Shown here piece after piece: positions 1,397 through 61,317 of a stretch of 61,317 bases of DNA. Numbering within the stretch: the stretch's first letter is position 1; every line of letters begins with the position of its first letter. The DNA is from Thermoplasmata archaeon (GTDB lineage Archaea > Thermoplasmatota > Thermoplasmata > RBG-16-68-12 > JAFNFQ01), in contig JBGPQV010000017.1 in assembly GCA_041489255.1 (NCBI GenBank), forward strand, positions 1 through 61,317, in the 5' to 3' direction. The translations under genes were made by a program, and so were the position numbers. A model generated the notes under the pieces. It was not told the DNA's origin and did not search any database. It worked only from the letters and a program-made list of their open reading frames with translations.

Positions 1397-1553
1397 CTTT
1401 CCATCCCCTCCCTTATTCCACATCCTTTGACATCCGCCATCGACACACCAGCCACAGCCACAGGGGTGTATCCCCGATGGCGAGATGAATGTTTCCGTTG
1501 GCCCGTTTCGTTGTGAAATCGCTTCTTTCGGCGTTGAGATAATCCGTTGACCC

Positions 1554-1962: not shown

Positions 1963-2023
1963 GAGACGGAGAACATGGCGGCTGCTATAAAGCCTGTTCG
2001 CCGGCGGAATTCCCGTCATCGCA

Positions 2024-19372: not shown

Positions 19373-20533
19373 CTAGAACCACTTCATACACACCTGGCAG
19401 CCCTTCATCTGGCTCGCGCAGTCTGTGTGGTATATCTTTGGGCAGTTGCACTGGACAGAGGGCGTCCCCTTCACCACGAGTTTGCCGCATGCGGCGCAAG
19501 TGCCCGACTCCAGGACGATGTCGTCAGGCTTCCTCGTCTTTATCTGTTCCGCGAAATGACACTGGACGAAGTGGCCCGGGGTCACCTCCCTCAGCGGCGG
19601 CTTGATCTCAGAGCAGAGGCCCCGCCTGTAGAGGCACCTGGGGTGGAAGTAGCATCCTGGCGGGATGTCTATCGGGCTCGGCAGCTCCCCGCGTATCTCC
19701 ACGCGCCCGTGCTTGGCCTTCGGGTCTGGTATGGGCACCGCGGAAAGCAGCGCCTCGGTGTACGGGTGCATCGGGTTCTTGATTATGTCCTCCGACGGAG
19801 CGAGCTCGACGATGTTCCCGAGGTACATCACCGCGATCCTGTGCGACATGTACCGCGTGACCGAGACGTCGTGGCTGATGAACATGAACGGGATGTCGTA
19901 CTCGTCTCGCAGCTTGAGCATGAGGTTCATGATCCCCGCGCGTATCGAGACGTCGAGCATGCTCACGGGTTCGTCCGCGACGACGAACTCCGGTCTGAGC
20001 ACGAGGGCGCGGGCGATCGCGACCCTCTGCCTCTGTCCGCCGCTGAGCTCATGAGGGTAGCGGTAGAGGAACTCCTCCGGGGGCTTCAGCTCAGCCGACT
20101 CGAGCGCCCTTGCCGCCATCTCCTCCCTCTCATCGTAGGATTCCCCGATTCCATGCACGACCAGCGGCTCGGACACCGTAGAGTAGACGGTGAACCGGGG
20201 GTTCAGCGACTCGTACGGATCCTGGAATATCATCTGCACCTTCCGCCTGAACTCCTTGAGTTGCCTACCCTCCAGCTTCCCAATGTCGGTGCCGTGGAAC
20301 AGCATCTGCCCGGATGTCGGAGTCTCGAGGCGCGTGAGCAGGCGGCCCGTCGTCGTCTTGCCGCAGCCCGACTCCCCCACCATGCCGACTATCTCGCCCT
20401 TCCTGATGTCGAAGCTGACGCCGTCCACCGCGTGCACGAACCTCTCTGGGGCGAACATCGACCCGAACCCGGCCTTCACAGGGAAGTACTTGACCAGGTT
20501 CTTGACGCTGAAAACGATCGGTTCCTCAGCCAT
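19373..20533 (-). CDS. oppF: Oligopeptide ABC ATPase OppF-like with C-terminal RING-like finger
   Basis: GESGCGKTT, LSGGQRQR, HPYT and GCYFHPRC, plus an extra C2-CxC-H-C-C2 tail. Confidence 0.93.
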   Translation of the reverse strand: MAEEPIVFSVKNLVKYFPVKAGFGSMFAPERFVHAVDGVSFDIRKGEIVGMVGESGCGKTTTGRLLTRLETPTSGQMLFHGTDIGKLEGRQLKEFRRKVQMIFQDPYESLNPRFTVYSTVSEPLVVHGIGESYDEREEMAARALESAELKPPEEFLYRYPHELSGGQRQRVAIARALVLRPEFVVADEPVSMLDVSIRAGIMNLMLKLRDEYDIPFMFISHDVSVTRYMSHRIAVMYLGNIVELAPSEDIIKNPMHPYTEALLSAVPIPDPKAKHGRVEIRGELPSPIDIPPGCYFHPRCLYRRGLCSEIKPPLREVTPGHFVQCHFAEQIKTRKPDDIVLESGTCAACGKLVVKGTPSVQCNCPKIYHTDCASQMKGCQVCMKWF

Positions 20534-20534
20534 C

Positions 20535-36422: not shown

Positions 36423-36495
36423 GCGGCTATAGTGTAGCCTGGTATCACATAAGCTTGCCAAGCTTATAACTCGGGTTCAAATCCCGGTGGCCGCA
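36423..36495 (+). tRNA. tRNA-Gly(GCC)
   Basis: GCGGCTA/TGGCCGC acceptor stem, TAAGC-TTGCCAA-GCTTA anticodon arm and TTCAAAT T-loop. Confidence 0.96.
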
Positions 36496-36581
36496 CTTCT
36501 TTCCCTGAAATCACCGCCACGATTCAGCTGGGCCGGCGGCACCGTTATCTGGCCTCATCGTATTCCGGTGGCGGGAGAGAA

Positions 36582-39034: not shown

Positions 39035-41375
<2,341 letters not shown>

Positions 41376-41446
41376 TTATGGAAATACATCGAAAGCATTT
41401 TATATGCGCGAGAGGCAATCAGCACCGCCGCAGGTAAGCCCGCGGC

Positions 41447-42472
41447 ATGTCAGGTCGGGGGAGGAAGGTGGCAAGATCGCCAGCGTCGCCAGACGGTACC
41501 CGCTCCGCTTCTGAGTCGGAAGTGCAGAGGGCATTTGAGGAGAGTTTTCAAAGGAGTCTGGCGGAGGAGCCGTGGATGGGCGCGGGCCTCTACGGCACGT
41601 ACCTGAGCTCCCCCGACGATATCCGTCGCAGCTTCCTGGACCTCTGGCCCCGCCTCGATGGCATCTTGGAGAGATCAATCGATCCGGCATCCGCCCTGAA
41701 GGACATCGGTGATCTGATCGTCTACGAAATCCCCGACGGAACGCGCACGACGCTCAGCACGAACGAAAAGATCGACGTCGAGCTGGACGCGGGCATGTGG
41801 TGCCTCTCGTTCATCCACACACTCCGCTCGCTAGGAGCGAAAAAGGCGGTGCTGATGACGCACACCTCCTACAACCGGCAGAGAGGCGAGGGGGAGATGG
41901 AGCGGATTATATCCGTCATAGAGAGGGGGATTGCTCCGGTGGCCGACTACTGCGAGAAGAACGACATCAACGCGAGGCTGGTCGGCCTGAGCGACGAGTA
42001 CGAGCTGAGCGAGAGCCTCAGAGCCGCTTTCCCCGAGAGGAAGGGAGCGGACTTCGAGGTCTTCTTCCTCATCGACTACAGAGAGGAGTGCTTCCTGGAG
42101 GAAAAGGGCAAGGAGCTCATGTCGCGGCTCCCGGATGTTGACGTCGTCGTGAGGCACACGAAGATGCACATATCCGGCGGCTGGCTCCCCACGAAGACCC
42201 TGCGCTCGACCTACCTCTACTGCCAGAACGGGACCGTGTACACCAACTGGACGTTCGACGAGCACGTTTCTCTCGTCGGGGCGGCGCTCCTGGCGAAGTA
42301 CCTGAACCAGGGGGAGATGCTTGTCAAGACCTATCCCTCGGTCGACGATGTCAAGAAGAGGTACCAGAAGAGGGAGCTGAGTCTTTCCAACCGTGTCGTC
42401 AAGGTCCGAGAGGCCCCGAGGAAGCTCTACGTCATGGGGTCCCCGTGGGGCCTGGTCCAGCTCTACTACTAG
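41447..42472 (+). CDS. Divergent cis-prenyltransferase (UPPS)-fold protein
   Basis: IPDGTR, HTSYNRQRGEGEM and PDVDVVVRH occur in the order of cis-PT regions I, III and V. Confidence 0.55.
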   Translation: MSGRGRKVARSPASPDGTRSASESEVQRAFEESFQRSLAEEPWMGAGLYGTYLSSPDDIRRSFLDLWPRLDGILERSIDPASALKDIGDLIVYEIPDGTRTTLSTNEKIDVELDAGMWCLSFIHTLRSLGAKKAVLMTHTSYNRQRGEGEMERIISVIERGIAPVADYCEKNDINARLVGLSDEYELSESLRAAFPERKGADFEVFFLIDYREECFLEEKGKELMSRLPDVDVVVRHTKMHISGGWLPTKTLRSTYLYCQNGTVYTNWTFDEHVSLVGAALLAKYLNQGEMLVKTYPSVDDVKKRYQKRELSLSNRVVKVREAPRKLYVMGSPWGLVQLYY

Positions 42473-46705: not shown

Positions 46706-49700
46706 GTGCGGCCAGCACGTGGGCATAGCGAGAGACTTCGAGTGCGCTTGGTTTCTTTTGCGTTCGCTGTCGCACTTGCGATGGAATTCTTTGCGATGGC
46801 AGGGACTCGGGCGGTGGGCGCGCCGAGTGCGATTGAGAAGACTAGTGTCGAAAACATCGCTGCACAGAGTCTGGGCTCACCCGCTGGCTACTTCATCGAG
46901 AATCGTGGCCAGATGGCGGGGGGAGTCCGATACTATGCTCTCGGCAATCCCTCGATAGGATTCAGAGACGATGGCGTGATGTTCGTGGTGCGGGAGTCTG
47001 CCGGCACCGCGCGCGACTTGTTCGATTCTCGACATGAATCGAGAATCATAGCTTACCTGATGAGATTCGACGGTGCGCGTGTCGCCGCGCCGGCAGGGAG
47101 AGGATTGGCGCCGCACACGAGCAACTTCTTCTTCGGAAACGACCCAGCCCAGTGGAATGTCGATGTACCAAATTATGGAGAGGTGGTGTACAGCGATATC
47201 TATGACGGTGTGAACGTGGTCTACCGTCTGGGCCCGACCGGTCTGAAGTACGATCTCATTCTGCAGCCCGGAGCGGATATTGGACAGATCGAAATCGCCT
47301 ACGATGGTATCGAAGGAATAGCCGTTGGCGGCAATGATGCGATTGTCAAGACTGCACTCGGCGAGATTCGCGACAGCCTGCCCCGCTCCTATCAGGCGGA
47401 TGGTGGGAGCGTCAGCTGCGCGTTCGCAAGTAGAGGAACATTCTCCTACGGGTTCAAGTGCGATGGATGGGACAGGACGAGCGCTCTGACGATCGACCCG
47501 CTGGTGTACTCCACGTTCCTGGGCGGGACCCAGGGTGACTATGGGAATTCGATCAAGGTCGACTCGGCCACCGGGGATGCGTATGTGGCGGGGTACACCG
47601 GGTCCACGGACTTCCCCACTACCCCAGGCAGCTACCGCGAGACAACCACCCTCACGGGCAGCGGGTTCGTGACGAAGGTGGCTTGGAACGGGACCTACCT
47701 GATCTATTCGACCTACTTCGGCGGGATCGCATTTGACGGCGCGTTCTCGCTTGACATCGATTCAGCCGGCAGCGCGTACATCACTGGATACACGGAATCT
47801 TCGGACTTCCCGACAACGCCCGGCGCGTACAACAGGACGTACGCGGGAGGACCCAACTACGGGGCGGTCTTCGCCCTGAAGCTGAGCCCATCAGGCGATT
47901 CCCTCATTTACTCGACATACCTCGGCACCGGCGTCAGCCTAGCCATAGGAACCGTCGAGCGGCCCTATGCGATCGCTGTGGATGGTTCGGGGAACGCATA
48001 TGTGACAGGTCACACGACCATGCCGACTTTCCCGACAACCGCGGGGGCCTATGATAGGACCTTCAATGGCGGTGTGTACGATTCGTTCCTGACGAAGCTG
48101 AATGCGAGCGGAGATCGGCTGGTCTACTCGACATTCCTGGGCGGGAGCAGCTCAGACCATACGGTCTCGGTCGCCCTCGATTCGAGCAACAATGCCTATG
48201 TCACCGGGCTCACCGGCTCGGCGAACTACCCGACCACCGGCGGGGCCTACCAGACAACCTATGGAGGCGACATCTATGACGCCTTCGTGACGAAGGTGAA
48301 CGCGGCGGGAAGCGGCCTAGCCTATTCGACCTTCGTGGGCTCGCCGGGCATCGAGGAGTCCTACTCGATCGCTGTCGACGGAACGGGGTCCGCCTTCATC
48401 ACGGGCGTCGCCCGCGACAACAAGTATCCCACGACTGCCGGAGCTTACTCGGGGACGATGAACGGGCCTTGGGACGCGTTCGTCACGAAGCTCAATGCGG
48501 CAGGTTCAAACCTGGCCTATTCGACGTTCCTTGGCGGGACTCTTGGCGATGTAGGATACGCCATCTGCCTCGATCCCAATGGCCTCGCAGTCGTCACCGG
48601 CACCGCAGGGGATGGCGCGTTCCCGACCACGGCAGTCGCGTACGACAGGACCTTCAACGGTGGCATTTCTGATGTCTTCTTGACGAAGTTGAACGCGGGG
48701 GGAACCAACCTGGTCTACTCGACCTTCCTCGGAGGAATCGACCAGGAGCAGGGTTTGTCCGTCGCGGTCTCCTCGGCACGCGACGCCTATGTCACGGGAG
48801 ACGCGTGGTCCAGCGACTATCCGACGACACCCGACGCATTTGACACGACCTTGAGCGGCACGCCGAACGGCATGGTGACGAGGGTCGTCTTCACCAACAG
48901 CGGACCGACTGCCAACGCGGGCTCAGACTTCACTTTGCCTCGGAACTTCCGCGCGGACCTCAACGGCTCGGCGAGCTCTGACCCTGACGGCGACGTTCTG
49001 CACTTCGCGTGGACCCAGGTCGCTGGACCTCCCGCCACGATAAACAACGCGACACAGGCGGTCGCGTGGATCCAGCCGCAGTCCCTCGGCATCCACACCT
49101 TCATGCTCACGGTAAATGACTACTACGGCGCAGCGTCAACAGACAACGTCATCGTCACGGTGGTCAACGACCCGCCGGTCAGCAGCGCCGGCCCTGACGC
49201 TTTCAGCTACAGGAACACGGCGACCTACCTGGACGGGAGCGGGAGCAGCGACCCGAACGGGGACCCGCTCACATATGCGTGGACCCAGCTGCTCGGGCCC
49301 GACACCCCGACGATCAACGGCCCAGACCAGCCGAGGCCCTGGTTCGCCACGACCGTAATGGGGCTGTTCAGGTTCCAGCTGAACGTGTCCGACAACTATG
49401 GTGCCTATGACCTCGACACCGTGGACATCACCATCAGGAACCGCGCGCCCGTGGCGGATGCGGGTGTGGACCATTCGGGACGTCCTGCCGACCCGATAAT
49501 CCTGGACGGTTCCGCGACCTATGACCCCGACGGCGACGCGATCATCTACAGCTGGACGGAGCTGTCCGGACCTCCGGCGACCATAACGAACTCCACGCAG
49601 GCGGTGGCCTGGCTGAATACGTCAAACATCGGAGTCTTCCAGATGATGCTCGAGGCCCGCGACGCGTTCGCGGGGTGGACGCTGGACTTCGTCAACATCA

Positions 49701-52447
49701 CCGTGGCAAACGCTCCGCCGGTCGCGAACGCGGGCCCTGACCAGATAGGTCACAGGAGCACACGCGTCGACCTCGACGGCAGCGGGAGCACGGACATCGG
49801 CGGGACGATCGTCTCGTATCTCTGGACGCAGACGTCGGGACCTGCCATCACGCTCAACAATCCTAACGCTGCACTGGCCTGGTTCACTCCGACCGTTCTG
49901 GGCAACTACGCCTTCACCCTGACGGTCACAGACAACGACGGCGCGTGGGACACCGATAGCACGAACGTCGCAGTGGTTAATCGACGGCCTGTGGCGAACG
50001 CAGGATCAGATGCCGGGGCGTTCAAGAACACCTCGTTGACTCTGAACGGTTCGCTGAGCTCGGATGCGGACGGCGACACGCCTAGTTTCGCGTGGACGCA
50101 GGTCGGCGGTCCGGGCGTGACGCTGACCGGGGCAGACACCGACAAGCCGACCTTCACACCGACCGCCTCAGGCATCTATGTCTTCAACTTGACAGTCGAT
50201 GACGGGTTCGGCGGACTGGACTGGGACAGCGTCAACATAACGGTCACGAACCGCGACCCCATCGCGGACGCCGGTGTGGACCAGACCGTCGCTGTGGACT
50301 CGCTCGTGACGCTGGACGGGAGCGCGTCGTCCGACCCGGACCGCGACCCGATCACCTTCGCCTGGACGCAGACGAGCGGCCCGGCGGTCACCCTGACGGG
50401 GGACGACACCGCAAGACCGACCTTCACCCCGACCGTGATCGCGATCTACAGCTTCCAGGCCAGGGTCAGCGACAACGACGGCGGTTCCAGGACCGACACC
50501 ATGACGGTCAATGTCATCAATGGGGTGCCGCCCGTCGCCGACGCGAAGGTCTGGCCAGGACTGACAGGTCACGTCGGAGCGGTATTCGTCTTCGACGGCT
50601 CCAACTCCACCGATCCAGACGGAACGATAACGGGATATCTCTGGGACTTCGGCGACCTTGCGACGGATCCCAGGGCTAAGGCGCCGCACAGCTTCGGCAC
50701 CGCGCAGGTCTTCACCGTGAAGCTGACCGTGACCGACAACGATGGCATGACCAACTGGACGACGTTGCAGATCGACGTCTTCAGCGGCACTCCGCCCGTG
50801 GCGGACATCAAGGTCTGGCCCGCTGCGACCGGGTACATCGGGACCGTCTTCGTGTTCGACGGTGCCAACTCGACCGACCCAGACGGGACCATCTCCACGT
50901 ATTCGTGGGAACTGGGCGACGGCAACGTCACGCCCGGCGCGAATATCAATCACTCGTTCACAAGCAAGGGGCAGTTCACCGTCAACCTCACGGTCACGGA
51001 CAACGACCTGATGACGGACGTGGCCACCGTGACCATCCTGATCGTGAACCGGCGGCCCTTGATCGTGTCTCATATGCCGACGTCGTCCTCTGCCGATGTC
51101 ACCGCGAACCACAGTGAGCTGTTTTCCGTCGTCGCGAACGATTCGGATGGGGACGTGCTCTCCTACGCCTGGCGGTTGGACGCGGCCCAGGTAGGGGCGG
51201 ACTCCTCCACCTACACATTCAACGAGTCAGCATTGAGGACATACGTCTTGAATATCACCGTCTCGGACGGTCTTGCACAGGACTGGTACCAATGGACGGT
51301 GACGGTCTCGTCTGGCGGGAACGGCAACAACAATCCGCAGATCGAGGGCGGCTTCCCATGGTGGATCGTGATCATCGTCATCGTGGTCGTCGTCCTCGTC
51401 GTTCTCCTGTTGCTCTTCACCAAGCGAAAGAAGCATGAGGAGCCGGTTCCGCCGGCAGAAGCCCCCGCGAAGGCACCGCCAAAGAAGGAAGGAGTCGTGA
51501 CTGCCCCCGCCGAGCCAACGCCGAAACCGGCAGCGAAGCCCACGACAGCGCCAGCGGCCAAACCTTCAATCGAGCCTGCAGTAAAACCAGCCGCCAAGCC
51601 AGCGGCGGCGTCGGCCAAACCTGCGCCAAAGCCTGCGGTGAAGCCAGCCGCCAAGCCAGTGGTTGCGACACCTGCAGCGCCGACGACCGAGCCTACCGTG
51701 AAGCCTTCTCCCGTCACGACACAAGCTGCGCCAATCGCAGCACCGATAGCCCCAACTGCCACGCCTGCTCCAGCACCCGCCGTCGAACCCTTGCCTGAGC
51801 CCGCGAAGGTCCCGCCCGCCGAGCTTATCATCGGGCCGTCCGCTGCCGCACCGCCAAGTACACCATTAATCACGCCCCCGATTATCGCAGTCGCCACGCC
51901 TGTCCTCCCGCCATTAGTTGAACATGTGACCGAGCATGCGAGCATGCTGCCCACTGAGACTGTTGTCGAGCCGCCCTCCGTTCCCACGCCTGCTTCGCCA
52001 ATCGTCATGCCTCCGATAATCACAACCGCCACGCCCGTCTTCGCGCCCGTCGCCGCGCATGCGCCCATGCTTGCGGCGATGCCTGAGGGGACGCCTCCAC
52101 CCAAACCGCCAGAACCCCAAGCCGCCATTCCTCTCCACGCGCCAAGCGCCGCACCCGCCGCCACACATTCGCCAATGCTTGCGGCGGCGCCCGAAGTGAC
52201 GCCTCCCCCGACATCGCCAGAACCTCAACCCGCCATTCCTCTCCACGCGCCAAGCCTTGCGCCCGCGGCGGTTCTTCCGGCCAAACCCGCGACAGAGCCA
52301 CCCGGCATGCACGCAGCCAAGCCTGAAGCCAGACCCGCGGCGGCTCCCGCCATGGCTTTCTGTCCGACGTGCGGCAAGCCGGTCCGGTACATCGAGACCT
52401 ATGAGCGATGGTATTGCTATTCCTGCAAGGAGTACTACGCGTCGTAG
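46706..52447 (+). CDS. Large cell-surface protein: SBBP propeller repeats, PKD/Ig repeats, TM, Pro/Ala tail and Zn ribbon
   Basis: FIENRGQ; repeated YSTFLGG/AYVTG; repeated P.ADAG.D...LDGS.S.DPDGD; TM WWIVIIV...; terminal CPTC...WYCYSC. Confidence 0.92.
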   Translation: MRPARGHSERLRVRLVSFAFAVALAMEFFAMAGTRAVGAPSAIEKTSVENIAAQSLGSPAGYFIENRGQMAGGVRYYALGNPSIGFRDDGVMFVVRESAGTARDLFDSRHESRIIAYLMRFDGARVAAPAGRGLAPHTSNFFFGNDPAQWNVDVPNYGEVVYSDIYDGVNVVYRLGPTGLKYDLILQPGADIGQIEIAYDGIEGIAVGGNDAIVKTALGEIRDSLPRSYQADGGSVSCAFASRGTFSYGFKCDGWDRTSALTIDPLVYSTFLGGTQGDYGNSIKVDSATGDAYVAGYTGSTDFPTTPGSYRETTTLTGSGFVTKVAWNGTYLIYSTYFGGIAFDGAFSLDIDSAGSAYITGYTESSDFPTTPGAYNRTYAGGPNYGAVFALKLSPSGDSLIYSTYLGTGVSLAIGTVERPYAIAVDGSGNAYVTGHTTMPTFPTTAGAYDRTFNGGVYDSFLTKLNASGDRLVYSTFLGGSSSDHTVSVALDSSNNAYVTGLTGSANYPTTGGAYQTTYGGDIYDAFVTKVNAAGSGLAYSTFVGSPGIEESYSIAVDGTGSAFITGVARDNKYPTTAGAYSGTMNGPWDAFVTKLNAAGSNLAYSTFLGGTLGDVGYAICLDPNGLAVVTGTAGDGAFPTTAVAYDRTFNGGISDVFLTKLNAGGTNLVYSTFLGGIDQEQGLSVAVSSARDAYVTGDAWSSDYPTTPDAFDTTLSGTPNGMVTRVVFTNSGPTANAGSDFTLPRNFRADLNGSASSDPDGDVLHFAWTQVAGPPATINNATQAVAWIQPQSLGIHTFMLTVNDYYGAASTDNVIVTVVNDPPVSSAGPDAFSYRNTATYLDGSGSSDPNGDPLTYAWTQLLGPDTPTINGPDQPRPWFATTVMGLFRFQLNVSDNYGAYDLDTVDITIRNRAPVADAGVDHSGRPADPIILDGSATYDPDGDAIIYSWTELSGPPATITNSTQAVAWLNTSNIGVFQMMLEARDAFAGWTLDFVNITVANAPPVANAGPDQIGHRSTRVDLDGSGSTDIGGTIVSYLWTQTSGPAITLNNPNAALAWFTPTVLGNYAFTLTVTDNDGAWDTDSTNVAVVNRRPVANAGSDAGAFKNTSLTLNGSLSSDADGDTPSFAWTQVGGPGVTLTGADTDKPTFTPTASGIYVFNLTVDDGFGGLDWDSVNITVTNRDPIADAGVDQTVAVDSLVTLDGSASSDPDRDPITFAWTQTSGPAVTLTGDDTARPTFTPTVIAIYSFQARVSDNDGGSRTDTMTVNVINGVPPVADAKVWPGLTGHVGAVFVFDGSNSTDPDGTITGYLWDFGDLATDPRAKAPHSFGTAQVFTVKLTVTDNDGMTNWTTLQIDVFSGTPPVADIKVWPAATGYIGTVFVFDGANSTDPDGTISTYSWELGDGNVTPGANINHSFTSKGQFTVNLTVTDNDLMTDVATVTILIVNRRPLIVSHMPTSSSADVTANHSELFSVVANDSDGDVLSYAWRLDAAQVGADSSTYTFNESALRTYVLNITVSDGLAQDWYQWTVTVSSGGNGNNNPQIEGGFPWWIVIIVIVVVVLVVLLLLFTKRKKHEEPVPPAEAPAKAPPKKEGVVTAPAEPTPKPAAKPTTAPAAKPSIEPAVKPAAKPAAASAKPAPKPAVKPAAKPVVATPAAPTTEPTVKPSPVTTQAAPIAAPIAPTATPAPAPAVEPLPEPAKVPPAELIIGPSAAAPPSTPLITPPIIAVATPVLPPLVEHVTEHASMLPTETVVEPPSVPTPASPIVMPPIITTATPVFAPVAAHAPMLAAMPEGTPPPKPPEPQAAIPLHAPSAAPAATHSPMLAAAPEVTPPPTSPEPQPAIPLHAPSLAPAAVLPAKPATEPPGMHAAKPEARPAAAPAMAFCPTCGKPVRYIETYERWYCYSCKEYYAS
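52067..52257 (+). repeat. Two-copy 108-bp-period intragenic repeat in the Pro/Ala tail
   Basis: ATGCTTGCGGCG...GCCATTCCTCTCCACGCGCCAAGC begins at 52067 and 52175. Confidence 0.8.
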
Positions 52448-52512
52448 GATGAGGAGAAGCCGCCGGTCAAACCAGACGACGGGGAAGCGGTGCAGATGCG
52501 GCGGGCGCCTGA

Positions 52513-52569
52513 GGCCCTCACCTGATCTTCTTTGCGTTCAAATCGACGACATTCCGGCGGAGCCTGTGT
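52513..52569 (-). pseudogene. Degenerate copy of the purB 3' end
   Basis: First 20 nt are identical to 53470-53489. It encodes HTGSAG/NVVDLNAKKIR* (one frameshift) versus PurB YTGSAGKIVDSIVKKIR*. Confidence 0.8.
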
Positions 52570-52642
52570 GGGGTCCGGGCAGACAGACCCCCAACGCCAC
52601 CATGATGGGAAGACCCATTCGGATGACGGTTACACAATACGA

Positions 52643-53224
52643 CTACACGTCGGTTCGGCGGGAGCGCCGCCGTCTGAGAATAAGGGCGATCATGATCGAG
52701 ACAGTCGAGATCGCCAAGGCACCTGCGATGAGAATCGGCGTGAGGTCGAGAGTACCGTAAGGACCTCCGCACCTGACTTGGTACCCCTCCTGAACGAACA
52801 AATACCAACTAAACGAGAAATTCCCACTTCGCCAGTCCCGATCCCAATACAGATGAATCCCCCTCGAGTTGTCGGTCCTGAGGGTCGCGTTCTCCTCCCA
52901 GACCATGAATTCATCGCCCTGAGAGACGTTCGTGTCACTGTCGCGGTCTTGGTATGTGATGAGTTCCGTTACGCTGGGGAGCCTCCCCGTGTGATTCACA
53001 ACCTCCTCGAAGGTCTCATGCCACATGTATCCATCCAATCTGAACGAAAGAACCCTGAGCGGGAACTCACCTGCTGGCGTCGAAACGCTCACGGTCCATA
53101 AGGGAGAGGAGTATGTGACGGAATATTCCATGGGGCAGGGCTGACTGGCCGAGGCAAGCAATGGGACTGCGTTGAGGACAAGGCCGGCGGCGAGCAACCC
53201 GCAAACTAGGAGCCGCCCGTTCAT
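52643..53224 (-). CDS. Exported, C-terminally anchored hypothetical protein
   Basis: Signal peptide, YQDRDSDTNVSQGD acidic loop, and TM followed by RRRRSRR. Confidence 0.75.
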   Translation of the reverse strand: MNGRLLVCGLLAAGLVLNAVPLLASASQPCPMEYSVTYSSPLWTVSVSTPAGEFPLRVLSFRLDGYMWHETFEEVVNHTGRLPSVTELITYQDRDSDTNVSQGDEFMVWEENATLRTDNSRGIHLYWDRDWRSGNFSFSWYLFVQEGYQVRCGGPYGTLDLTPILIAGALAISTVSIMIALILRRRRSRRTDV

Positions 53225-53359
53225 GTTTGAGTATCGCTACCTGGGGCCATAATGCTTCGCTCATCGATAGGATTCCGGGAGAAGCTCATCTGGCACTTCC
53301 GTGGCCTGAGGCTTGGTGGCGGGGCGGGCCGACCTCTTCTGTCCAAAGCCCCTGTATGG

Positions 53360-53460
53360 CCAGCGGTCAAGCCTGCTGTGAAGCCCGCCAAGCCGGCGAC
53401 CAAGCCCGGGGCCATTCCTGCCTCGAAGCCTGCGCCGAAGCTAGCCACAAAAATGCGACC
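53360..53460 (+). pseudogene. Remnant of a PAVKPAAKP-type tail resembling the surface protein
   Basis: Reads PAVKPAVKPAKPATKP...KPAPK, similar to 51575-51660; low complexity limits certainty. Confidence 0.4.
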
Positions 53461-53474
53461 AATACCGGCGGCCC

Positions 53475-54815
53475 TCACCTGATCTTCTTCACTATCGAGT
53501 CGACAATCTTGCCCGCGGAGCCGGTGTAGGACGCGGGGTCGAGCGCCTTGTCGAGCTCCTTGGCGGTGAGCAGCTTCATCACTGTATGGTCCTTCGCGAG
53601 GACGTCGCGCAGGTGCACTCCCTTTTCCCTCGCGGCCATCGCCACGTCCCTCGTGAGCTTGTGCGCCTCCTGGCGCCCCATGCCCTTCTTCACGAGGGCG
53701 ATCATCACCGACTCCGACATGACCTGGCCCTTGGTCCTCTCGATGTTCTCCTTCATTCTCTCCGGGTAGACGCGGAGCTTCGAGAACACATCCGCTGTCT
53801 TCACCAGGATGTCGTCAGTCAGCACGAAAGCGTGAGGGATGATGAAGCGCTCCGTCGAGGACTGCGTGATGTCCCTTTCGTGCCAGAAGGAGATGTCCTC
53901 GAAGGCGGGGATGAGCAGGCCGCGGACGACTCGCGCGAGCCCGCAGATGTTCTCGCTGACCACGGGGTTCTCTTTGTGGGCCATCGTGCTGCTGCCCACC
54001 TGCCTCTCCCGCCCGAACGCCTCGGCGGCCTCGCCTATCTCGTTCCTCTGGAGGTTCCTGACCTCCGTGGCGAACTTCTCCGCCGAGGAGCAGATGTTCG
54101 CGAGCACCGCGATGATCTCGGCGTACCTGTCCCTGCCGACTATCTGGCCGGATGCCTCCTCGAAGCCGAGGTGCAGCTCCTTCATCACGATCTCCTGGAT
54201 CTTGAGGGCCTTTGGCCCGAGGGCGGCTCCTGTTCCAACTGCACCGCTCATCTTCCCCACCGCAACGCGTTTCCTCGCCTGCTCCAGTCTCTCGAGGTGC
54301 CTCGTCGTCTCCAGCGCGTAGACCGCCATCTTCAGCCCGAAGGTGATCGGCACCGCCGCCTGCCCGTGAGTCCTCCCGAGCATGACGGTGTCCCTATGCG
54401 CCTTCGCCTGTCCGGCGAGGACCCTGCTGACGCCCCTCAGGTCCTCCGCTATCAGGTCGACCGCGGCGCTCATCTGCAGGGCGGTGGCAGTGTCGGTGAT
54501 GTCGTTGCTCGTCGCCCCGAGGTGCACGTACCTCTTGGCAGAATCGGAGCACGCCTCCGTCAGGGCGAGGACGACCGCCATGACGTCGTGTCCGGTCTCC
54601 TTCTCGATCTCCTTGACGCGCTCGAGGCGCACCTTGTTCAATGTGACGTTCTCCCCTATGTTGACTGCGTCCTTGAAGGGGATGTCGCCGACGACGGCGT
54701 GCGCCTTCGCGAGGGCCGCCTCGACCTGCAGCATCCTCCTGAGCTTCTCCTCCTCGGAGAAGATAGACTTCATCTGCTGACGGCCGTAGCGAAACTCGAG
54801 GGGACAGATTGACAT
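53475..54815 (-). CDS. purB: Adenylosuccinate lyase
   Basis: HLGATSND, GRTHGQ and GSSTMAHKENP motifs; start at MSICPL. Confidence 0.96.
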   Translation of the reverse strand: MSICPLEFRYGRQQMKSIFSEEEKLRRMLQVEAALAKAHAVVGDIPFKDAVNIGENVTLNKVRLERVKEIEKETGHDVMAVVLALTEACSDSAKRYVHLGATSNDITDTATALQMSAAVDLIAEDLRGVSRVLAGQAKAHRDTVMLGRTHGQAAVPITFGLKMAVYALETTRHLERLEQARKRVAVGKMSGAVGTGAALGPKALKIQEIVMKELHLGFEEASGQIVGRDRYAEIIAVLANICSSAEKFATEVRNLQRNEIGEAAEAFGRERQVGSSTMAHKENPVVSENICGLARVVRGLLIPAFEDISFWHERDITQSSTERFIIPHAFVLTDDILVKTADVFSKLRVYPERMKENIERTKGQVMSESVMIALVKKGMGRQEAHKLTRDVAMAAREKGVHLRDVLAKDHTVMKLLTAKELDKALDPASYTGSAGKIVDSIVKKIR

Positions 54816-54860
54816 GCGATGACCGCGGCGGCATCGGCGGTGGCGGTTATGATGCTTTCG
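54700..54860. repeat. purB promoter + 5' end, copy A (functional)
   Basis: 161-bp direct repeat with 57278-57438, 7 mismatches. Confidence 0.95.
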
Positions 54861-55280
54861 CAGCGAGGCTGCGGAGAACAATAATTCCTGAGGATTCCAA
54901 GCCGACTCCTCCTTTGCCGCGAAATCCTGTGAATATGGGTATCCCAGATTTCTTTTCTGGAAATCATGGGAGCCTTCTTTGAGCACGGGGGACACTCGTA
55001 AATCGATAGGCATCTGCGTTCAGAAGTGCAGGTTAGGACGGTCGATTGGCCTCCCATCCTCGCATACCCGGCCCAATGTCCAAGAAGTGAATTACGGGAA
55101 ACGCAAGCTGACCAAGGCATGATCCGAGCGCCGTCAGCCACGATTCATCCCTCATGGACTGTTAAGGGTCGACGACAAGGGCAAGAGTAACGGAAACGCT
55201 GACGCACTCCATGTGACGATTCATTTCCATCCGGCTCTAATGCGGGGAGTGGCGTTCTTTCTGGTTTTCGTGTTGACTTC

Positions 55281-55734
55281 TCAATTGCTTCTCCGGCCGG
55301 CATCTCTATCTCTCATGATGTCCAACCACCAAGCAATCGTCGCAGCGCCCAGAATCGCCGAAATGGCCCAGACGGTCATCGCGAAGAACAGGTGAGGGTA
55401 AAATAGAACCATCCCAGTCGCGATACCTAGCACTAATGCTGCCCAGATCGCAACGATCGGCCATTGGAGTTTTTCTGGAAGGCTCCGATGTGCGGTGCAC
55501 ACGCCATCATTTCTGGTTGACTGCAAACTGATCCTCCGGACATTGCTCTACATGCCAATTGACATATTCGTTGCCCAAGGAATCCCCATAGCCCTCTATG
55601 AAACCTTCGCAACCGGAAATGTATATGGAGGAATGATCAGGATCGGAAGGAGCCATGTGCATACCGACTGTCAGAGCCGTTCCCGCCATGAACGTGACCA
55701 GGCAGAGAATGATCGTCACTTTCCAGATGTTCAT
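55281..55734 (-). pseudogene. Probably frameshifted small membrane protein (55507-55734 + 55281-55526)
   Basis: AGGAGGT RBS. Removing one A from CAG-AAA-TGA joins the two ORFs as ...CPEDQFAVNQNDGVC... with three hydrophobic helices. Confidence 0.55.
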
Positions 55735-55751
55735 ATCTTCGGACCTCCTTG

Positions 55752-57011
55752 TCAAAGGGTGAAGAAATAGACGCTTTGGGAATTAGTCTGGACTTGAGCC
55801 CACGAGAAAGCTGTAGCAAAACCTATCACAGCCGCACGCGCATCCGTGTCAAGTTCGATGATGAAGTGATAATAGTGACCAACTATGAGGGTGGCAGGGA
55901 AATCTCGATTGTAGTAGAAGTCCTTCCACTCCAGGTAGAAGTTATTCCCGCGATTGAACATAACCCATTGATCACTGGCAATGATCTTCCATCCGATGGT
56001 TTCGTCCACGACTTTCGACCACAGAGTCGCTGCAGCTGAAGATGCCCCGCAACCAATGAAACCGCAGGTTGCCATCGCCATTGCTTGAACGTAGGTAAAG
56101 TGATACCAGAATCTAGCGAGCAACGGCTCTGTACCATATGCCCGCCATGATCCCGCTTGTGGGCCTACCAGCCCTGCGCTCGCCCAACTGAATACTCGAC
56201 CATAGGGAGGACAGGCCCCAGCGTCACTACGTGCCGCTAGATAGCCTGTGGGAGCATTGAATCCTGCATAATAGTAATAGGAATAACAGGATTCGTCGTG
56301 GTTTTTGCCTCCTCCAGCATAACCGCCGTAATACGGTGGGGAAAACGAATAGCGCAATTGCTGCAGGATTCCAGGCTTCCCAACGGAAGAACCGGCCGTG
56401 GGAAGATCCTGGGACTTCTTGATAATCATGCCCTTCCCCGCCGACGATTGCAGTATCGTGAATGTTGAAGTCTCATTTCCCCATACCACCGTACCGTTGC
56501 CTGTGGTCAGTCTGAGAGATGTCGTCGAAAAGTTAAGCAAGGAATAGTTGCCTGAGCTTTGATATGATTCAAAGACGTGGACGGTGGCGGTTGTCATTTT
56601 CAGCGTGAAGTTCTCCTCTCCAAGGAATGCATAGCCAGAACTAACATCAGATGGCAGGATCCAAAGCCACGTGTAGTAATCACCACGTGCGGGTTCGACA
56701 ATCTTCCGCGTGGTTTCATCGAACGTCGTGTTCACGACAATCTGGTTGACCCCTCCGCTCTGATTCAGAGTGGCATATGTTTCACGGTAGGAGACTCTCC
56801 CTGATTCGACATTTGTTATCAGCACGGTGTATGTGAAATTACTGGTCTCTACCGGAGGCTCAATCGTCCGGAAATAGTGCTGAAAAACATAGTAGTTGCC
56901 AGATATCAGCCAATCTGGCGGTAAATCCGCAACAGCAGGCGTCGCTATTAATCCACCAATGATCATAAATGATATCAGCGCAATCCCTACAAGTCTATCG
57001 CATTTGCTCAT
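55752..57011 (-). CDS. Secreted orphan protein, two beta-rich domains
   Basis: Signal peptide (…PAVA|D), many NxT/S sequons, Gly/Ala/Tyr/Cys-rich C-terminal half; TTTTATA box upstream. Confidence 0.8.
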   Translation of the reverse strand: MSKCDRLVGIALISFMIIGGLIATPAVADLPPDWLISGNYYVFQHYFRTIEPPVETSNFTYTVLITNVESGRVSYRETYATLNQSGGVNQIVVNTTFDETTRKIVEPARGDYYTWLWILPSDVSSGYAFLGEENFTLKMTTATVHVFESYQSSGNYSLLNFSTTSLRLTTGNGTVVWGNETSTFTILQSSAGKGMIIKKSQDLPTAGSSVGKPGILQQLRYSFSPPYYGGYAGGGKNHDESCYSYYYYAGFNAPTGYLAARSDAGACPPYGRVFSWASAGLVGPQAGSWRAYGTEPLLARFWYHFTYVQAMAMATCGFIGCGASSAAATLWSKVVDETIGWKIIASDQWVMFNRGNNFYLEWKDFYYNRDFPATLIVGHYYHFIIELDTDARAAVIGFATAFSWAQVQTNSQSVYFFTL

Positions 57012-57069
57012 CCAAACCACCAATAACGGGATAGGCTCTGACTATAAAAAAATTTCCTAGCCAAGCTGC

Positions 57070-57268
57070 ATCCCACAGCGCATCCATATCTTTTTCCGAC
57101 TTGAACCAGACTCTGAATGGGGGCAGAAGGCAGAAGTTGTGGGCAACCACATTCAATCCGATCCCCTGCACCGGTCTCACCTCTTCGTGGTGGATATCCT
57201 CCTTCCCCCAGCCTCTTGATCGGGAAACCTGTTGATTCGTCGCTGCCCCTGTTGTGGCAGAGGTTCAT
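57070..57268 (-). pseudogene. Degenerate DDE transposase C-terminal fragment (IS4/IS5-like)
   Basis: CHNRGSDESTGFPIKR has Y(2)R(3)E(6)K spacing with Y changed to C, then after a frameshift QGIGLNVVAHNF. Confidence 0.5.
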
Positions 57269-57393
57269 GCGCTTGTATGCGCCTTCGCGAGGGCCGCCTC
57301 GACCTGCAGCATCCTCCTCAGCTTCTCCTCCTCGGAGAATATCGACTTCATCTGCTGACGGCCGTAGCGGAACTCGAGGGGACAGATGGACAT
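57265..57393 (-). pseudogene. Truncated purB 5' fragment (39 PurB residues + TSA*)
   Basis: MSICPLEFRY...EAALAKAH is identical to PurB at the protein level. Confidence 0.93.
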
Positions 57394-57438
57394 AAGATGA
57401 CCGCGGCGGCATCGGCGGTGGCGGTTATGATGCTTTCG
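57278..57438. repeat. purB promoter + 5' end, copy B
   Basis: 154/161 identity to 54700-54860. Confidence 0.95.
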
Positions 57439-57682
57439 TAATAGGGAGGAGACGTGGATTCCACGCGATGGCCCGGCCTCATAGGTTCCAAGTCAGTGCA
57501 GGGCTTCCTGCCAACGAGGATCCGAAGCGGTCCCTCCGCGGTGGGGTCTTGAAACTAGCGTCCGGATGTATCTTGAAATCAGCTCCATCCGCTCCTTGGA
57601 TTGATGCACTCCACCATGGATGATCCCTGCGAACCCAACCGGGTGAAAGGATGATCCCGGGGGGTAAGGAGAAAAGAAAAAC

Positions 57683-58081
57683 ATGGGATACTCGGAAGCA
57701 CAGATATTGGGGCTAGTGGAAAAGACCGAAGACCTGCAGGTGACGGAGCAGGCGGCGCTGACGGATGCGAACCTGAACGTCCCCGCGATGCACGAGGAGC
57801 TCCTCATCCTCCACAAGAAGGCGAACGAGTCGAACGAGAAGCAGGAGCAGAAGAAAAGGGAGCTGAAGGAGATCACTGTGGAGCACGAGGCGGACCTCAA
57901 GCGGCTCTACGTCGCCGCATCCAGCCAGCTCGACATGATGATCGGGGCGGTCAAGAAGGACAGCGTCGCGGCGAAGAACTTCAGGCGCATCCGCAGCAGG
58001 CTGAAGCGCCCCGACGCCGACGACATCGCCATCGCGCAGCCGGTCCCGCAGCCCGTCCCCACGCCGGTGCCGCTGAAGTAG
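57683..58081 (+). CDS. Coiled-coil hypothetical protein with basic C-terminal helix and Pro-Val tail
   Basis: AAGGAG RBS, strong GC3 bias, FRRIRSRLKR. Confidence 0.85.
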   Translation: MGYSEAQILGLVEKTEDLQVTEQAALTDANLNVPAMHEELLILHKKANESNEKQEQKKRELKEITVEHEADLKRLYVAASSQLDMMIGAVKKDSVAAKNFRRIRSRLKRPDADDIAIAQPVPQPVPTPVPLK

Positions 58082-58198
58082 CGGAGGGCGAGGGGGCGGG
58101 TCGGGCGGGAAAGCCTCGGGACCCGCCAGATTGCGGGGACCCGGGGCGACCGCCCACCGACCATACCTCTGATCCGGTTTGTGTCTGCGGCCAGCTAA

Positions 58199-58235
58199 GA
58201 GGCCCCTCAAGGGGCCTCACCTTTTTTTTATTTTT
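58199..58235 (+). terminator. Hairpin + T-tract terminator
   Basis: GAGGCCCC-TCAA-GGGGCCTC followed by T8AT5. Confidence 0.8.
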
Positions 58236-58399
58236 CAACACAACCGCTGCGATCGAGACACGGCATGGGACATGATGTCTGAATATCTCACCGCCCTGTT
58301 CTCATCCAAGATTGAATCCGTCCTAGGCGGCCCTACCGCCAAGGACAATCGCGTTCATGTCGGCACCGCGTGAACTCCCCCGTGGTCAACCGCCGTCGA

Positions 58400-58755
58400 A
58401 CCTCTCTACCCTTGAAACACATCATCCACCATCCGCGCCGACGTCATCTACATGTGCGCGGGACTTTTCTACATCAGGACCGAGGCTGTCCACCAGTGGA
58501 CCAAAGTGTTCCACGATCGAGTTGGCCCGTTTCGAGGCAGAATTGCAGTTCTCAGCGTCGGAAGGCAGTGTTCCGCGGTCGGGAAGTTGTCCATCCACGA
58601 GTAGACGAGGGTTTTCCCGAAGTGGATGAGACAGGTCTCGGTGCAGATGTGGTATATTCGGGCGTTCTAGCATGGATGAGCGTGTAGAACAGTTCGGCGC
58701 AGATGTAGACCTCCTTGCTCCAACATGGTGGGACACCAGGTTCTACGTCGATGAG
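58400..58755. repeat. Degenerate 21-bp-period array (TCYAC-nn-GTRGA)
   Basis: TCYAC at 58405, 58447, 58468, 58489, 58510 and 58594; GTRGA at 58496, 58601, 58622, 58684 and 58705. Confidence 0.75.
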
Positions 58756-58774
58756 CGTGGTGGCGGTGGAGACC

Positions 58775-58828
58775 GGGGACGCGCAGATATGCGTCATGGC
58801 GGCGGCGGTGGCGGTCATGATGCGTTCG
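58775..58828. repeat. purB promoter, eroded copy C
   Basis: 58803-58828 matches 54835-54860 at 24/26, with patchy similarity (GGGGAC, CAGAT, ATGCG) further left. Confidence 0.75.
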
Positions 58829-59131
58829 AAAAGAGGAAGAGATGGAGACAGGGCCTGATGGACGCGCCTGATCCTTCGTCGTCGTGTGGCGTGCCCAGTC
58901 ATGTAGCGAGGTCGACGAAATGAAGTCCAAGACGATTCTTCGTCCGTCGGAGCGGAATTCAGCTCGGAAACATCGCCGAGTATGACCGACCGCAAATAGG
59001 GGGGTGTCCATCTGATTGTCCACGCCTGACGGAAATGCGGTTCGCTTAGGGAAGGATTCGTTCTCATGGAGGGCTCGGTGTGGATTTCCGCGTTATGAGG
59101 TTCCGCAATGTCCCTCGGAATGTCCCCTCAA

Positions 59132-59168
59132 GCCCGCCCGAAAGGACGGGCACTTTCCTCTTTTTCTA
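59132..59168 (+). terminator. GAAA-tetraloop hairpin + pyrimidine tract
   Basis: GCCCGCCC-GAAA-GGACGGGC followed by ACTTTCCTCTTTTTCT. Confidence 0.5.
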
Positions 59169-59249
59169 TTGATGCAGAATCCTCGTTCGACAGGGCAAGT
59201 TCTCGCAGAGTCGGGTATGCATTCATCTTGACCGCCAGCCGTGGCCGCC

Positions 59250-59332
59250 TCGCCCGCCCTCTCGAAGAACTCGGCGGCTTCGACGCCCATGCCCGTCGGG
59301 CTGAGGTGCATATGGTTATCGTAGATTCTCAT
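59250..59332 (-). pseudogene. 5' fragment of an archaeal TatD-related metal hydrolase (COG1831-like)
   Basis: MRIYDNHMHLSPTGMGVEAAEFFERAG carries the DNHxH motif; similarity ends after about 27 codons. Confidence 0.6.
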
Positions 59333-59417
59333 CTTTCCCGCCACGCTGATGCGGTCTGACCTATATGGAGACGACTGCCTGCCGGTGGGAAGGGGGCATC
59401 TCGGCGGCGACTCCCGC

Positions 59418-59966
59418 CTATCTCAGCAGCCCTGCCGCCTTGAGTTCCTGCGTGATCTTCTCGACCGCCTGCTCGACATCAGACGGCTTCTTCGCGCCCG
59501 TGCAGACCAGCTTCCCGCTGCTGAACAGCAGGACGACGACCTTCGGCTCGTCCAGGCGGTAGACCAGGCCGGGGAACTGCTCGGGCTCGTACTCCACCTT
59601 CTCCAAGCCCAGGCTTATCGCGATGGCGTTGAGATTGATCTTCATGCCGAGGTTGCTCGTCGCGACGATGTTCTGGACCTCGATGTCCGGGTGCTTCTTG
59701 ATCTGGATGCCGGCCGCCTCGATCTGCTTGCCTACGGTCTCTATTGCGAGCCTCACGTCCTCCAAGCTCTTTCCTCCGGTGCAGACGACCTTGCCGCTAC
59801 TGAAAAGGAGCGTGGCGGTCTTCGGCTCCTTGAGGCGGTATATAAGCCCCGGAAACTGCTTGGGCTCGTACTCCGCCCCGTCAATGGCCAACGCTATCGC
59901 TTGAAGGTCAAGCTTCCCTCCGAGTGAGGTCGATGCCACGACATTCTCGATTTTTATCTTTGCCAA
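59418..59966 (-). CDS. tbp: TATA-box-binding protein
   Basis: Two repeats (ENVVAS/QNIVAT, YEPxQFPGL, LFSSGK); GGAGGAG RBS and TTG start. Confidence 0.97.
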   Translation of the reverse strand: MAKIKIENVVASTSLGGKLDLQAIALAIDGAEYEPKQFPGLIYRLKEPKTATLLFSSGKVVCTGGKSLEDVRLAIETVGKQIEAAGIQIKKHPDIEVQNIVATSNLGMKINLNAIAISLGLEKVEYEPEQFPGLVYRLDEPKVVVLLFSSGKLVCTGAKKPSDVEQAVEKITQELKAAGLLR

Positions 59967-60253
59967 CGCTACTCCTCCTAAGGATTGTGCGCGGATGCGC
60001 TTCTTCCGCCCCCGCCTGTGCGTCATTTAGATGGGGACTGATTTCGGGATAACAGAGTGGCCGTTTGAGCCAGATGCTTACTCACGTATCTGGACTCTGA
60101 CGTCTTCGTCTCTCCCGCTTTCGCGCACCTCTTTGCCATCATCCGATGCGAACACTCTTCTTCAATACAAGTCTTTCGGCAGTCCGGATAGAATAGTCCA
60201 GCAATTTCGATGTCTTGGGTAGGAAATATACATTGAGTACTAATTGCACCCAG

Positions 60254-60685
60254 CTAGATTCTCTTTGCTTTGATGGTCAGTATGTGGATTGACACACCGA
60301 GTGCCACCACCAACAACACAATACGAACAATCATGTTGTCAGTCACAACGATGGCGGAGAAACCGATCACGATCCAGAGTAGTGAGACGGTTGCGATTTT
60401 GACCTTCCACGGCATTCCCCTTCCCTGTCTGTAGTTCCTCAGATAAGATCCGAAGTATCTGTTCGTCAACATCCATTTGTACATTCTTTCTGACCCTCGA
60501 AGATAGCAGGCCGCCGCAAGCAGAAGAAATGGAGTCGTGGGAAGCAAAGGTATTGCGATTCCAACTATTCCGAGAGAGAGGAAGAAAGAACCTGCCACAT
60601 TCCATAGTAATCTGGAGATTCTACTTCGGTTGATTGGAGTCTCTGGAGAATCACCGTCTGATCGTTCTGACGATACTTCTGCCAT
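60254..60685 (-). CDS. YbaN/DUF454 family membrane protein
   Basis: GIVGIAIPLLPTTPFLLLAAACY motif; lower GC than the core. Confidence 0.9.
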   Translation of the reverse strand: MAEVSSERSDGDSPETPINRSRISRLLWNVAGSFFLSLGIVGIAIPLLPTTPFLLLAAACYLRGSERMYKWMLTNRYFGSYLRNYRQGRGMPWKVKIATVSLLWIVIGFSAIVVTDNMIVRIVLLVVALGVSIHILTIKAKRI

Positions 60686-60789
60686 GATCCCCTTCGAGGT
60701 TGTGAACAGATGGGACGAAATAATAAGGATATCGAGGCACGATAGCGAGACGTGCTCGGGTCTTTCGAGGGGGGCTTGGCACAGAGACG

Positions 60790-60975
60790 CTATCTAGCCG
60801 AGCAGAGCGGGGCGAAGATGAGCGTGACCTGCCAAGTTATGCCCTCCCCGAATAGGATTAACCGAACCATGAAAATCAGGAAGCCGATGATCCATGCCGC
60901 CACAATCAGCCCGAGCGTGCGCGAATGCGTCTTGATTCGCCGAGAGGGAATCGAGCGCTCGTCGGAAAGGCGCAT
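60790..60975 (-). CDS. Small membrane protein (61 aa, possibly truncated)
   Basis: AGGAGG RBS, TTTTAAG box upstream, hydrophobic helix. Confidence 0.5.
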   Translation of the reverse strand: MRLSDERSIPSRRIKTHSRTLGLIVAAWIIGFLIFMVRLILFGEGITWQVTLIFAPLCSAR

Positions 60976-61154
60976 CAATTGCCTCCTGCGGGCCCCCACG
61001 CCCCCTTTCTTCTTAAAACTCGCTCTCCAAGGACATTCGGGCTGGTCGGCGCGCCGCATCGTCAAGGGGTGCCTCCGAGTGAGCCCAGGTCCTTGCATTT
61101 CGACCGCGCCTACCCTTGCGCCGAAAGGCGAAGGGGCCTTCGCGGACCTCCCTC

Positions 61155-61230
61155 GGTGACCGTCGGAGAGCCGATTGTGTAGTGTTTCATGCAACGTAAT
61201 CGGCTTTTCTGCGACAGATACTTCTTAATA
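61155..61230 (-). repeat. Dispersed ~76-bp repeat, copy 2
   Basis: Inverted homologue of 81-156. Confidence 0.8.
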
Positions 61231-61317
61231 GCAATTTGTCTCTTTGTCTTGGCAGCTAAGGGATGGGATTCAGATTATGCAGCCCCGGAAACCAGTGAGG
61301 CTTCTACGGCGAGACGA

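Follow-up and report, generated by a model that had tools for sequence, protein, structure and literature searches.

Duplicated ends of purB and the DNA between them in a Thermoplasmata archaeon: evidence for a reused insertion locus

How does an intact gene come to lie among repeated fragments of its own two ends? The question is raised by purB, the gene for adenylosuccinate lyase, in a Thermoplasmata archaeon (assembly GCA_041489255.1, contig JBGPQV010000017.1, positions 1-61,317 of the forward strand). The whole stretch of 61,317 nucleotides (nt) that was analysed is referred to here as the window. It is a piece of archaeal chromosome, in which Nop56/58, aIF5A, RtcB, RFC, DNA ligase and TBP were found to be encoded using Pfam. 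A first-pass annotation, made from the letters of the DNA, had described an array of cassettes anchored on purB and had proposed an integron-like process in which incoming DNA restores the gene end. In the reading that we tentatively favour, and hold to be somewhat short of an even chance, purB is a reused attachment locus at which circular cassette DNA carrying a purB-end fragment was inserted by repeated tandem single crossovers at the outer edges of the gene, leaving recombinase-less cassettes resembling cis-mobilizable elements (CIMEs). The parts of this reading differ in strength. Campbell-type insertion topology, reused in tandem, is well supported, while neither candidate for the enzymatic agent of insertion, a trans-acting site-specific recombinase or the homologous recombination of the host, is well supported.

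Repeated ends of purB

The gene and the repeats of its ends are as follows, all repeats having been located by self-comparison except copy C, which was delimited by similarity to the purB promoter region of a close relative, L001.

53475-54815, minus strand: intact purB, 446 amino acids (aa); Pfam Lyase_1 (2.9e-54) and ADSL_C (9.6e-26)
54700-54860, minus strand: 5' repeat copy A, the first 39 codons of the working purB and, in the 45 nt before its ATG, the core promoter
57278-57438, minus strand: 5' repeat copy B, promoter and codons 1-39, then three foreign codons and a stop
58798-58945, minus strand: copy C, a promoter core (58803-58828, two mismatches) and old upstream flank
53465-53537, minus strand: 3' repeat, working copy; the final ~60 nt of purB with its stop codon and the few bases after it
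52508-52579, minus strand: 3' repeat, displaced remnant beside ancestral downstream DNA (the end of a giant PKD gene)

L001 (JAFNFQ010000012.1, 11.3 kb) was the sole close relative among the 80 loci that were returned by a PurB scan of species-representative genomes. The target gene is still whole. Its 446 residues contain both domains and align at full length with those of relatives, and identity to PurB of L001 is 95% across residues 1-446, end to end. At the nucleotide level the two genes aligned without gaps over 1388 nt at 93.3% identity, and of the codons that differ 61 are synonymous and 22 non-synonymous.

A sensitive self-comparison (53300-55100 against the window) showed copies A and B to be identical at 154 of 161 positions (E 1e-56). 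The 26-nt promoter core, CGAAAGCATCATAACCGCCACCGCCG, occurs three times in the window, in direct orientation and with 0, 0 and 2 mismatches, and was matched in none of 100 shuffles. The three purB 5' ends in direct orientation that had been described in the first-pass annotation were hence recovered. Copy C by itself is marginal (54830-54868 vs 58798-58836, 82% of 39 nt, E 3e-4), its overlap with the other copies being only ~26-31 nt. Taken together with ~120 nt upstream (58798-58945), it is homologous to the purB promoter region of L001 (68.9% of 151 nt, E 1.7e-12), with a local-alignment z of 26.5 between the two regions. A PurB-like translation after copy C was not found.

The 5' repeat starts with CGAAAGC followed by an A/T-containing box, which we take, judging from archaeal promoter structure, to be a BRE/TATA core promoter. 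The word CGAAAGC is also present upstream of other window genes, for example the ORF (open reading frame) at 41447 and a gene for a solute-binding protein. The best local example of the purB promoter pattern is the divergent purA/ORF-41447 intergenic region (41336-41447), where the same CGAAAGCAT word is followed by TTTATATG.

The purB 3' end occurs twice, as had been claimed. The two copies are 75% identical over 73 nt (E 1.6e-8), the remnant having a 1-nt deletion, and an exact 20-nt stop-codon core has two occurrences in the window. Self-comparison of the whole window gave five repeat pairs outside the giant PKD gene. The purB ends were the only gene-end duplications, and the remaining three pairs each lay within a single gene. 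A 38-nt direct repeat (89%; 20349-20386 and 21793-21830) is situated near both ends of a 579-aa ORF (20190-21929) to which no family was assigned.

The positions at which the repeats meet the surrounding DNA recur. Three unrelated upstream flanks (A, B and the type common to C and L001) join the 5' repeat at one nucleotide, just 5' of CGAAAGC, and three different downstream flanks join 2-5 nt past the stop codon. Pairwise comparison of the flanks of A, B, C and L001 resulted in z values of at most 2, except for C and L001 (z 9.2, 0 of 500 shuffles). A likeness of the A and B upstream flanks to the C/L001 flank that had been perceived by eye was rejected by the same shuffle test (z at most 2). 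An insert bracketed by direct repeats, one of which lies within an intact gene, was counted for insertion at an attachment site, and recurrent fixed junctions combined with direct repeats are the product of single-crossover insertion at such a site and argue against random illegitimate joins. In this respect the purB ends do behave as reused insertion sites, as had been proposed.

Occupancy and alleles in a close relative

The window and L001 have in common, besides purB, the giant PKD gene and the ligase gene (86% of nt) and the start of a coiled-coil-like gene (88% of nt). In L001, which is an independent assembly, the purB 3' end is duplicated as well (93% of 101 nt; arms of 101-110 nt). 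Its duplication encloses a different low-GC cassette of 390 nt with a 74-aa ORF for a two-segment membrane protein, and its displaced 3' stump adjoins the same ancestral downstream DNA as the stump in the window. The two stumps differ in decay: the window remnant is frameshifted and 60-71% identical to the other three 3' ends, whereas between the L001 stump and the two working 3' ends identity is still 89-92%. Upstream of purB, L001 has 2.2 kb unrelated to window DNA. This DNA contains orphan ORFs of 261 aa (535-1320, minus strand) and 330 aa (1447-2439, plus strand) for which no family, defence or phage match was obtained. The ~120 nt upstream of the L001 promoter are homologous to the copy C flank (~69% identical), and the position of the coiled-coil-like gene relative to this C-type flank differs between the window and L001. 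As expected, the L001 contig contains one promoter core and two stop-codon cores, and a second promoter core was not found on it. The suggestion that purB flanks would vary between relatives was accordingly supported by this comparison with one close relative, L001 having a different 3' cassette within its own duplicated ends and different upstream DNA.

The scan for end duplications took in 45 archaeal loci, the other 35 being 34 bacterial loci and the partial archaeal locus L076. A clear duplication was seen in one of the 45, namely L001. The other 44 were without a clear duplication, nine of them giving weak matches (60-79% identity, E 7.6e-8 to 1e-3). In the distant relatives L032 and L034 purB directly abuts the DNA ligase gene, and in L002 and L008 a single opposite-strand ORF separates the two. 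As purB lies next to the ligase gene in distant relatives, the giant PKD gene and the cassettes are additions and the downstream side is prone to insertion.

The allele carried by copy B was then used to infer the direction of change. Its 39 codons translate to PurB residues 1-39 with 100% identity, and its seven differences from copy A comprise two upstream of the ATG and five synonymous third positions. Compared with L001, copy B has two differences, none of them in the 116 coding bases. The working gene (copy A) differs from L001 at 5 of 116 coding sites and at seven positions over the repeat, the whole purB differing by 6.7%. Mismatch-free stretches of this kind are rare, as only 16 of 7701 sliding 116-column windows of the window-L001 alignment were free of mismatches. 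Judged on these bases, copy B stems from a functional purB of which an L001-like lineage was the source, and is not a decaying paralogue. Because copy B matches the L001 allele and such matches are rare, its coding piece looks incoming and not like a displaced resident end. As the functional allele of another lineage, it indicates that DNA with a purB fragment came from outside. Most likely it arrived joined to the low-GC DNA beside it, cassette E (described below). Arrival in that form would place the crossover in the first 41 identical bases, that is in the promoter, so that the resident coding sequence would never have been replaced.

This bears on two earlier claims. The idea of a gene end restored by the incoming DNA, with older copies being displaced outward, does not agree with an outer copy that has the L001 allele (0 of 116) beside a working gene that does not (5 of 116). 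Decay with distance from the intact gene holds in part only, since all coding differences of the 161-nt copy B are silent.

Copy B has kept a promoter and start codon, and its ORF (57265-57393, minus strand) could express a 42-aa peptide of the PurB N-terminus. The promoter points into the three ORFs of cassette E and, from its placement, could read through into them. No candidate for other purB stumps was obtained when the 42-aa peptide was used as query.

False tandem copies could also be generated by an assembler that stitched together two co-occurring strains. Judging from its relatives, the window is probably derived from a metagenome, and a copy with the allele of another lineage is what such stitching would produce. 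We nevertheless regard an artefact as highly improbable. The junctions of copy B with cassette E and of cassette E with copy A have no shared sequence at which an assembler could switch, the seven differing sites between the copies show that these are not collapsed repeats, and the independent L001 assembly has the same kind of 3' duplication.

Replacement was also considered, whereby linear chromosomal fragments from relatives, containing a whole purB and its neighbours, took the place of the resident gene's interior through joins that were illegitimate or homologous on one side, the stumps being the former resident ends. A single event of this type could yield the 5' and 3' stumps together, and the L001 break near the coiled-coil gene (~L001 362) could be explained along with the L001 3' stump by one replacement. 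An Ala-Lys-Pro repeat remnant beside the working gene, described below, looks like donor chromosomal context. The stumps are however of different age, copy B having no non-silent change and the 3' stump being frameshifted and reduced to 60-71% identity. Stumps and copies that differ in decay need several events of different age, so no single replacement accounts for both stumps, and one-event replacement was set aside on account of this great difference. Copy B is moreover closer to L001 than almost all other aligned window DNA, which makes it unlikely to be resident, and random illegitimate joins would not place three flanks at one nucleotide. We consider replacement in general improbable.

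Cassettes and the route of insertion

The DNA between the repeats is organised as follows.

54861-57277, minus strand: cassette E, between copies A and B; three ORFs in purB orientation; GC 0.47-0.545 vs 0.62-0.667 in purB
55752-57023, minus strand: cassette E ORF, 423 aa
55507-55755, minus strand: cassette E ORF, 82 aa
55281-55526, minus strand: cassette E ORF, 81 aa
57439-58797, no strand: segment between copies B and C, with a coiled-coil-like gene, a hairpin with T-run and ~560 nt without a recognised gene
57683-58081, plus strand: coiled-coil-like gene, 132 aa
~58196-58232: hairpin and T-run after the coiled-coil-like gene
52580-53464, no strand: 3' cassette; GC 0.557
52643-53224, minus strand: 3' cassette ORF, 193 aa, hydrophobic segments at the N- and C-termini
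53252-53482, plus strand: Ala-Lys-Pro repeat remnant ORF, 76 aa, its stop overlapping the purB stop

Cassette E, which had been annotated as a single gene, thus contains three ORFs. The minus-strand ORF 53221-53478 that had been named as the membrane partner in the 3' cassette proved to be the antisense of the Ala-Lys-Pro remnant, and the 21-bp array reported for the segment between copies B and C was not there, with no such array found in 57440-58800 by TRF or repeat search.

Cassette sizes span 0.4-2.4 kb. GC is low in cassette E and in the L001 3' cassette (0.467-0.487), less so in the 3' cassette of the window, relative to purB (~0.62-0.67). Hydrophobic segments are present in six of the seven cassette ORFs (193, 423, 82 and 81 aa in the window; 74 and 330 aa in L001), the exception being the L001 261-aa ORF. 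None of the cassette ORFs was assigned to a family in Pfam, NCBIfam, PHROGs or PADLOC. Among 5.8e9 proteins the 423-aa protein had no match but itself, searches of phages, plasmids and Atlas also gave none for it, and the L001 261-aa protein likewise had no match in Atlas. For the 193-aa protein one relative was found, P0002 (94%, 162 aa). P0002 is encoded on a contig of 923 nt, which is about the size of the 3' cassette. No sequence shared among the cassettes or their arms was found by comparison. The cassettes are small and recombinase-less, and most of their products are orphans that would be secreted or lie in the membrane, the 423-aa and 193-aa proteins being predicted to be membrane-anchored or secreted.

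What lies between copies B and C may be of a different nature. The 132-aa protein encoded there is a member of an uncharacterised family whose proteins measure ~125-130 aa (84 representative clusters at E at most 1e-3), and L001 has it too (82% of aa over 57 residues). With a gene of a conserved family that L001 shares, this segment may be resident DNA instead of a cassette. The earlier statement that each repeat pair encloses a different cassette consequently stands in so far as the enclosed DNA is unrelated and in part low in GC, and is in doubt for this segment.

Similarity to the giant PKD gene's tail was found for the Ala-Lys-Pro remnant (70% of 88 nt, E 3e-7), which looks like donor chromosomal context that was brought in with the 3' cassette. 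The giant surface protein itself (1913 aa, 46706-52447, plus strand) contains DUF7948, SBBP beta-propeller repeats, at least seven PKD domains and a membrane segment, and its C-terminus consists of an Ala-Lys-Pro-rich tail followed by a Cys-rich end. The L001 orthologue (1678 aa, L001 4628-9664) has a different ending. On the other side of the array, just downstream of TBP, an ORF at 59093-59344 (minus strand) starts with MRIYDNHMHLSP and its frame soon loses sense. The start resembles that of metal-dependent hydrolases, a likeness without Pfam support, and the ORF may be a gene truncated by insertions.

No recombinase or transposase was found by Pfam among the 54 ORFs of the window. Searches for remnants in 58100-59420, 54816-55013 and 57024-57277 gave no relevant match (Pfam, 12 stop-to-stop frames), and none was found among the cassette and unassigned ORFs with PADLOC, PHROGs and NCBIfam. 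The array is hence devoid of an integrase by all four resources, as the first-pass annotation had stated. A scan of 52000-61317 against Rfam returned only a sub-threshold IRES_Bip match inside the TBP gene, which was taken as chance, and no partial copies of the window tRNA genes (1889-1962 and 36423-36496) were detected.

Under the favoured reading of purB as a reused attachment locus, circular DNA with a copy of a purB end would recombine by one Campbell-type crossover at the outer edge of the gene. The crossover would fall in the 26-41-nt core promoter on the 5' side and in the last ~70-110 nt around the stop codon on the 3' side. The resident coding sequence would stay whole and the insert would end up between direct repeats of the gene end. 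At least two upstream events would result in copies C and B in tandem and at least one downstream event would be required, the older junctions having eroded. The favoured catalyst would be a site-specific recombinase whose gene is located in another part of the genome or was carried by elements now lost, for which the short overlap of copy C and the fixed junctions were counted. The circle itself may have originated when an aberrant excision took along codons 1-39 of an earlier host's purB, comparable to the origin of specialised transducing phages.

Several observations weigh against this reading. A recombinase was found neither in the 61-kb window nor on the 11-kb L001 contig. Both ends of one gene are used, and a recombinase-based mechanism would have to recognise two different sites. 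At 161 and 73-110 nt the repeats are long, and their coding pieces restore nothing if the crossover takes place at the outer edge. The arms, and likewise the Ala-Lys-Pro remnant, resemble captured donor chromosome more than a tailored attP. Between copies C and B there is a gene from a conserved family, which L001 has as well but in a different order relative to the C-type flank. The comparison of occupancy between close relatives, finally, rests on one genome.

The same topology could be obtained without a dedicated enzyme if circles of a purB-end fragment and cargo were integrated by host homologous recombination. Such circles would come from pop-out between direct repeats or from aberrant excision in a donor, which would be a natural counterpart of pop-in/pop-out as practised in the laboratory. 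Much of what burdens a recombinase is readily accommodated here: no recombinase in the window or L001, long arms (161 nt; 101-110 nt in L001), use of both gene ends without a second specificity, and arms in which, as in captured chromosomal DNA, coding pieces of no use and what is left of a neighbouring gene are found. That copy B is the allele of a related lineage is also in keeping with it. The ~26-31-nt overlap of copy C is however short for host recombination unless it was later truncated, the coincident junctions fit only if all circles descend from one founding event, and the illegitimate join that founded them is left unexplained. We regard integration by host recombination as unlikely, though as a serious alternative to the recombinase-driven attachment locus. 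A further step, in which purB promoter and terminus fragments would be portable homology arms, surface-protein circles would pop in and out by host recombination and the duplicated promoter would express the newcomers, would make the locus a functional analogue of an integron. Cassette exchange of this kind without a recombinase is in our estimate distinctly unlikely.

Comparison with known systems

The locus is a small, clean example of flexible gene content accumulating beside an essential gene in an uncultured archaeal lineage whose mobile elements are poorly known. It provides two short sequences as candidate attachment cores, one of 26 nt in the promoter and one of 20 nt at the stop codon. 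The allele comparison, which identified the outer purB fragment as incoming DNA, cautions against reading such scars as older copies pushed outward. Were the insertions independent of a recombinase, purB and its flanks would offer a natural model of how cassettes are exchanged through homologous recombination. No report of purB as an attachment site or genomic-island target was found in a limited literature search.

Integrative elements target housekeeping genes at the 3' end or, less often, at the 5' end, the gene being kept intact by a flanking repeat, and decayed elements without integration genes, the CIMEs, keep attL and attR and accrete in tandem with newcomers (PMC5704250). As in bacterial CIME accretion, the purB inserts lie between direct repeats of which one holds the gene end, purB has survived, and the site was reused in tandem. 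Bracketing repeats, a whole target gene, occupancy that differs in L001 and fixed boundaries were all found. An integrase or excisionase within the element, which would mark an autonomous form, was not, leaving only a recombinase-less CIME-like form. Differences from the bacterial elements described are the archaeal host, purB as target, the use of both gene ends and a 5' site that is a core promoter. The purB cassettes are also tiny and without traces of conjugation or integration genes, and may or may not descend from a larger element.

Among archaeal elements, 14 of 68 are described in 3' ends of protein-coding genes, with one purine-pathway gene among the targets, and tandem arrays reuse one site (PMC6563490). 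Insertion at the 3' end of a protein-coding gene and tandem reuse of the site are shared by purB. For crenarchaeal attachment (att) sites a range of 29-69 bp is quoted in the same account. The copy C overlap is close to or within this range, which was counted for the attachment-site reading. These archaeal elements were recognised largely by integrases or Cas1 and have short att sites, whereas at purB there is no recombinase, the repeats are 73-161 nt long and a 5' promoter site is used too. In the tycheposons of Prochlorococcus, newcomers push older elements into the island and partial target copies are left as scars (bioRxiv 10.1101/2020.12.28.424599). The purB locus resembles these in same-site integration and in partial copies of the target gene as scars. 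Unlike purB, tycheposons carry tyrosine recombinases and target tRNA genes.

A row of unrelated small promoter-proximal cassettes is reminiscent of integrons, as is the copy B promoter that points into cassette E. The integron analogy put forward initially nevertheless fails its defining tests. IntI, attI and attC are lacking, and what bounds the cassettes are pieces of the target gene. Within 49000-61317 no inverted-repeat arms lie closer together than 338 nt, unlike those of an attC site, as judged from the arms and with no attC model run. The published model that fits is tandem accretion at an attachment site (PMC5704250, PMC6563490, bioRxiv 10.1101/2020.12.28.424599). What flanks purB is the scar usually left when DNA inserts repeatedly at a single chromosomal site, and it does not amount to a novel type of system.

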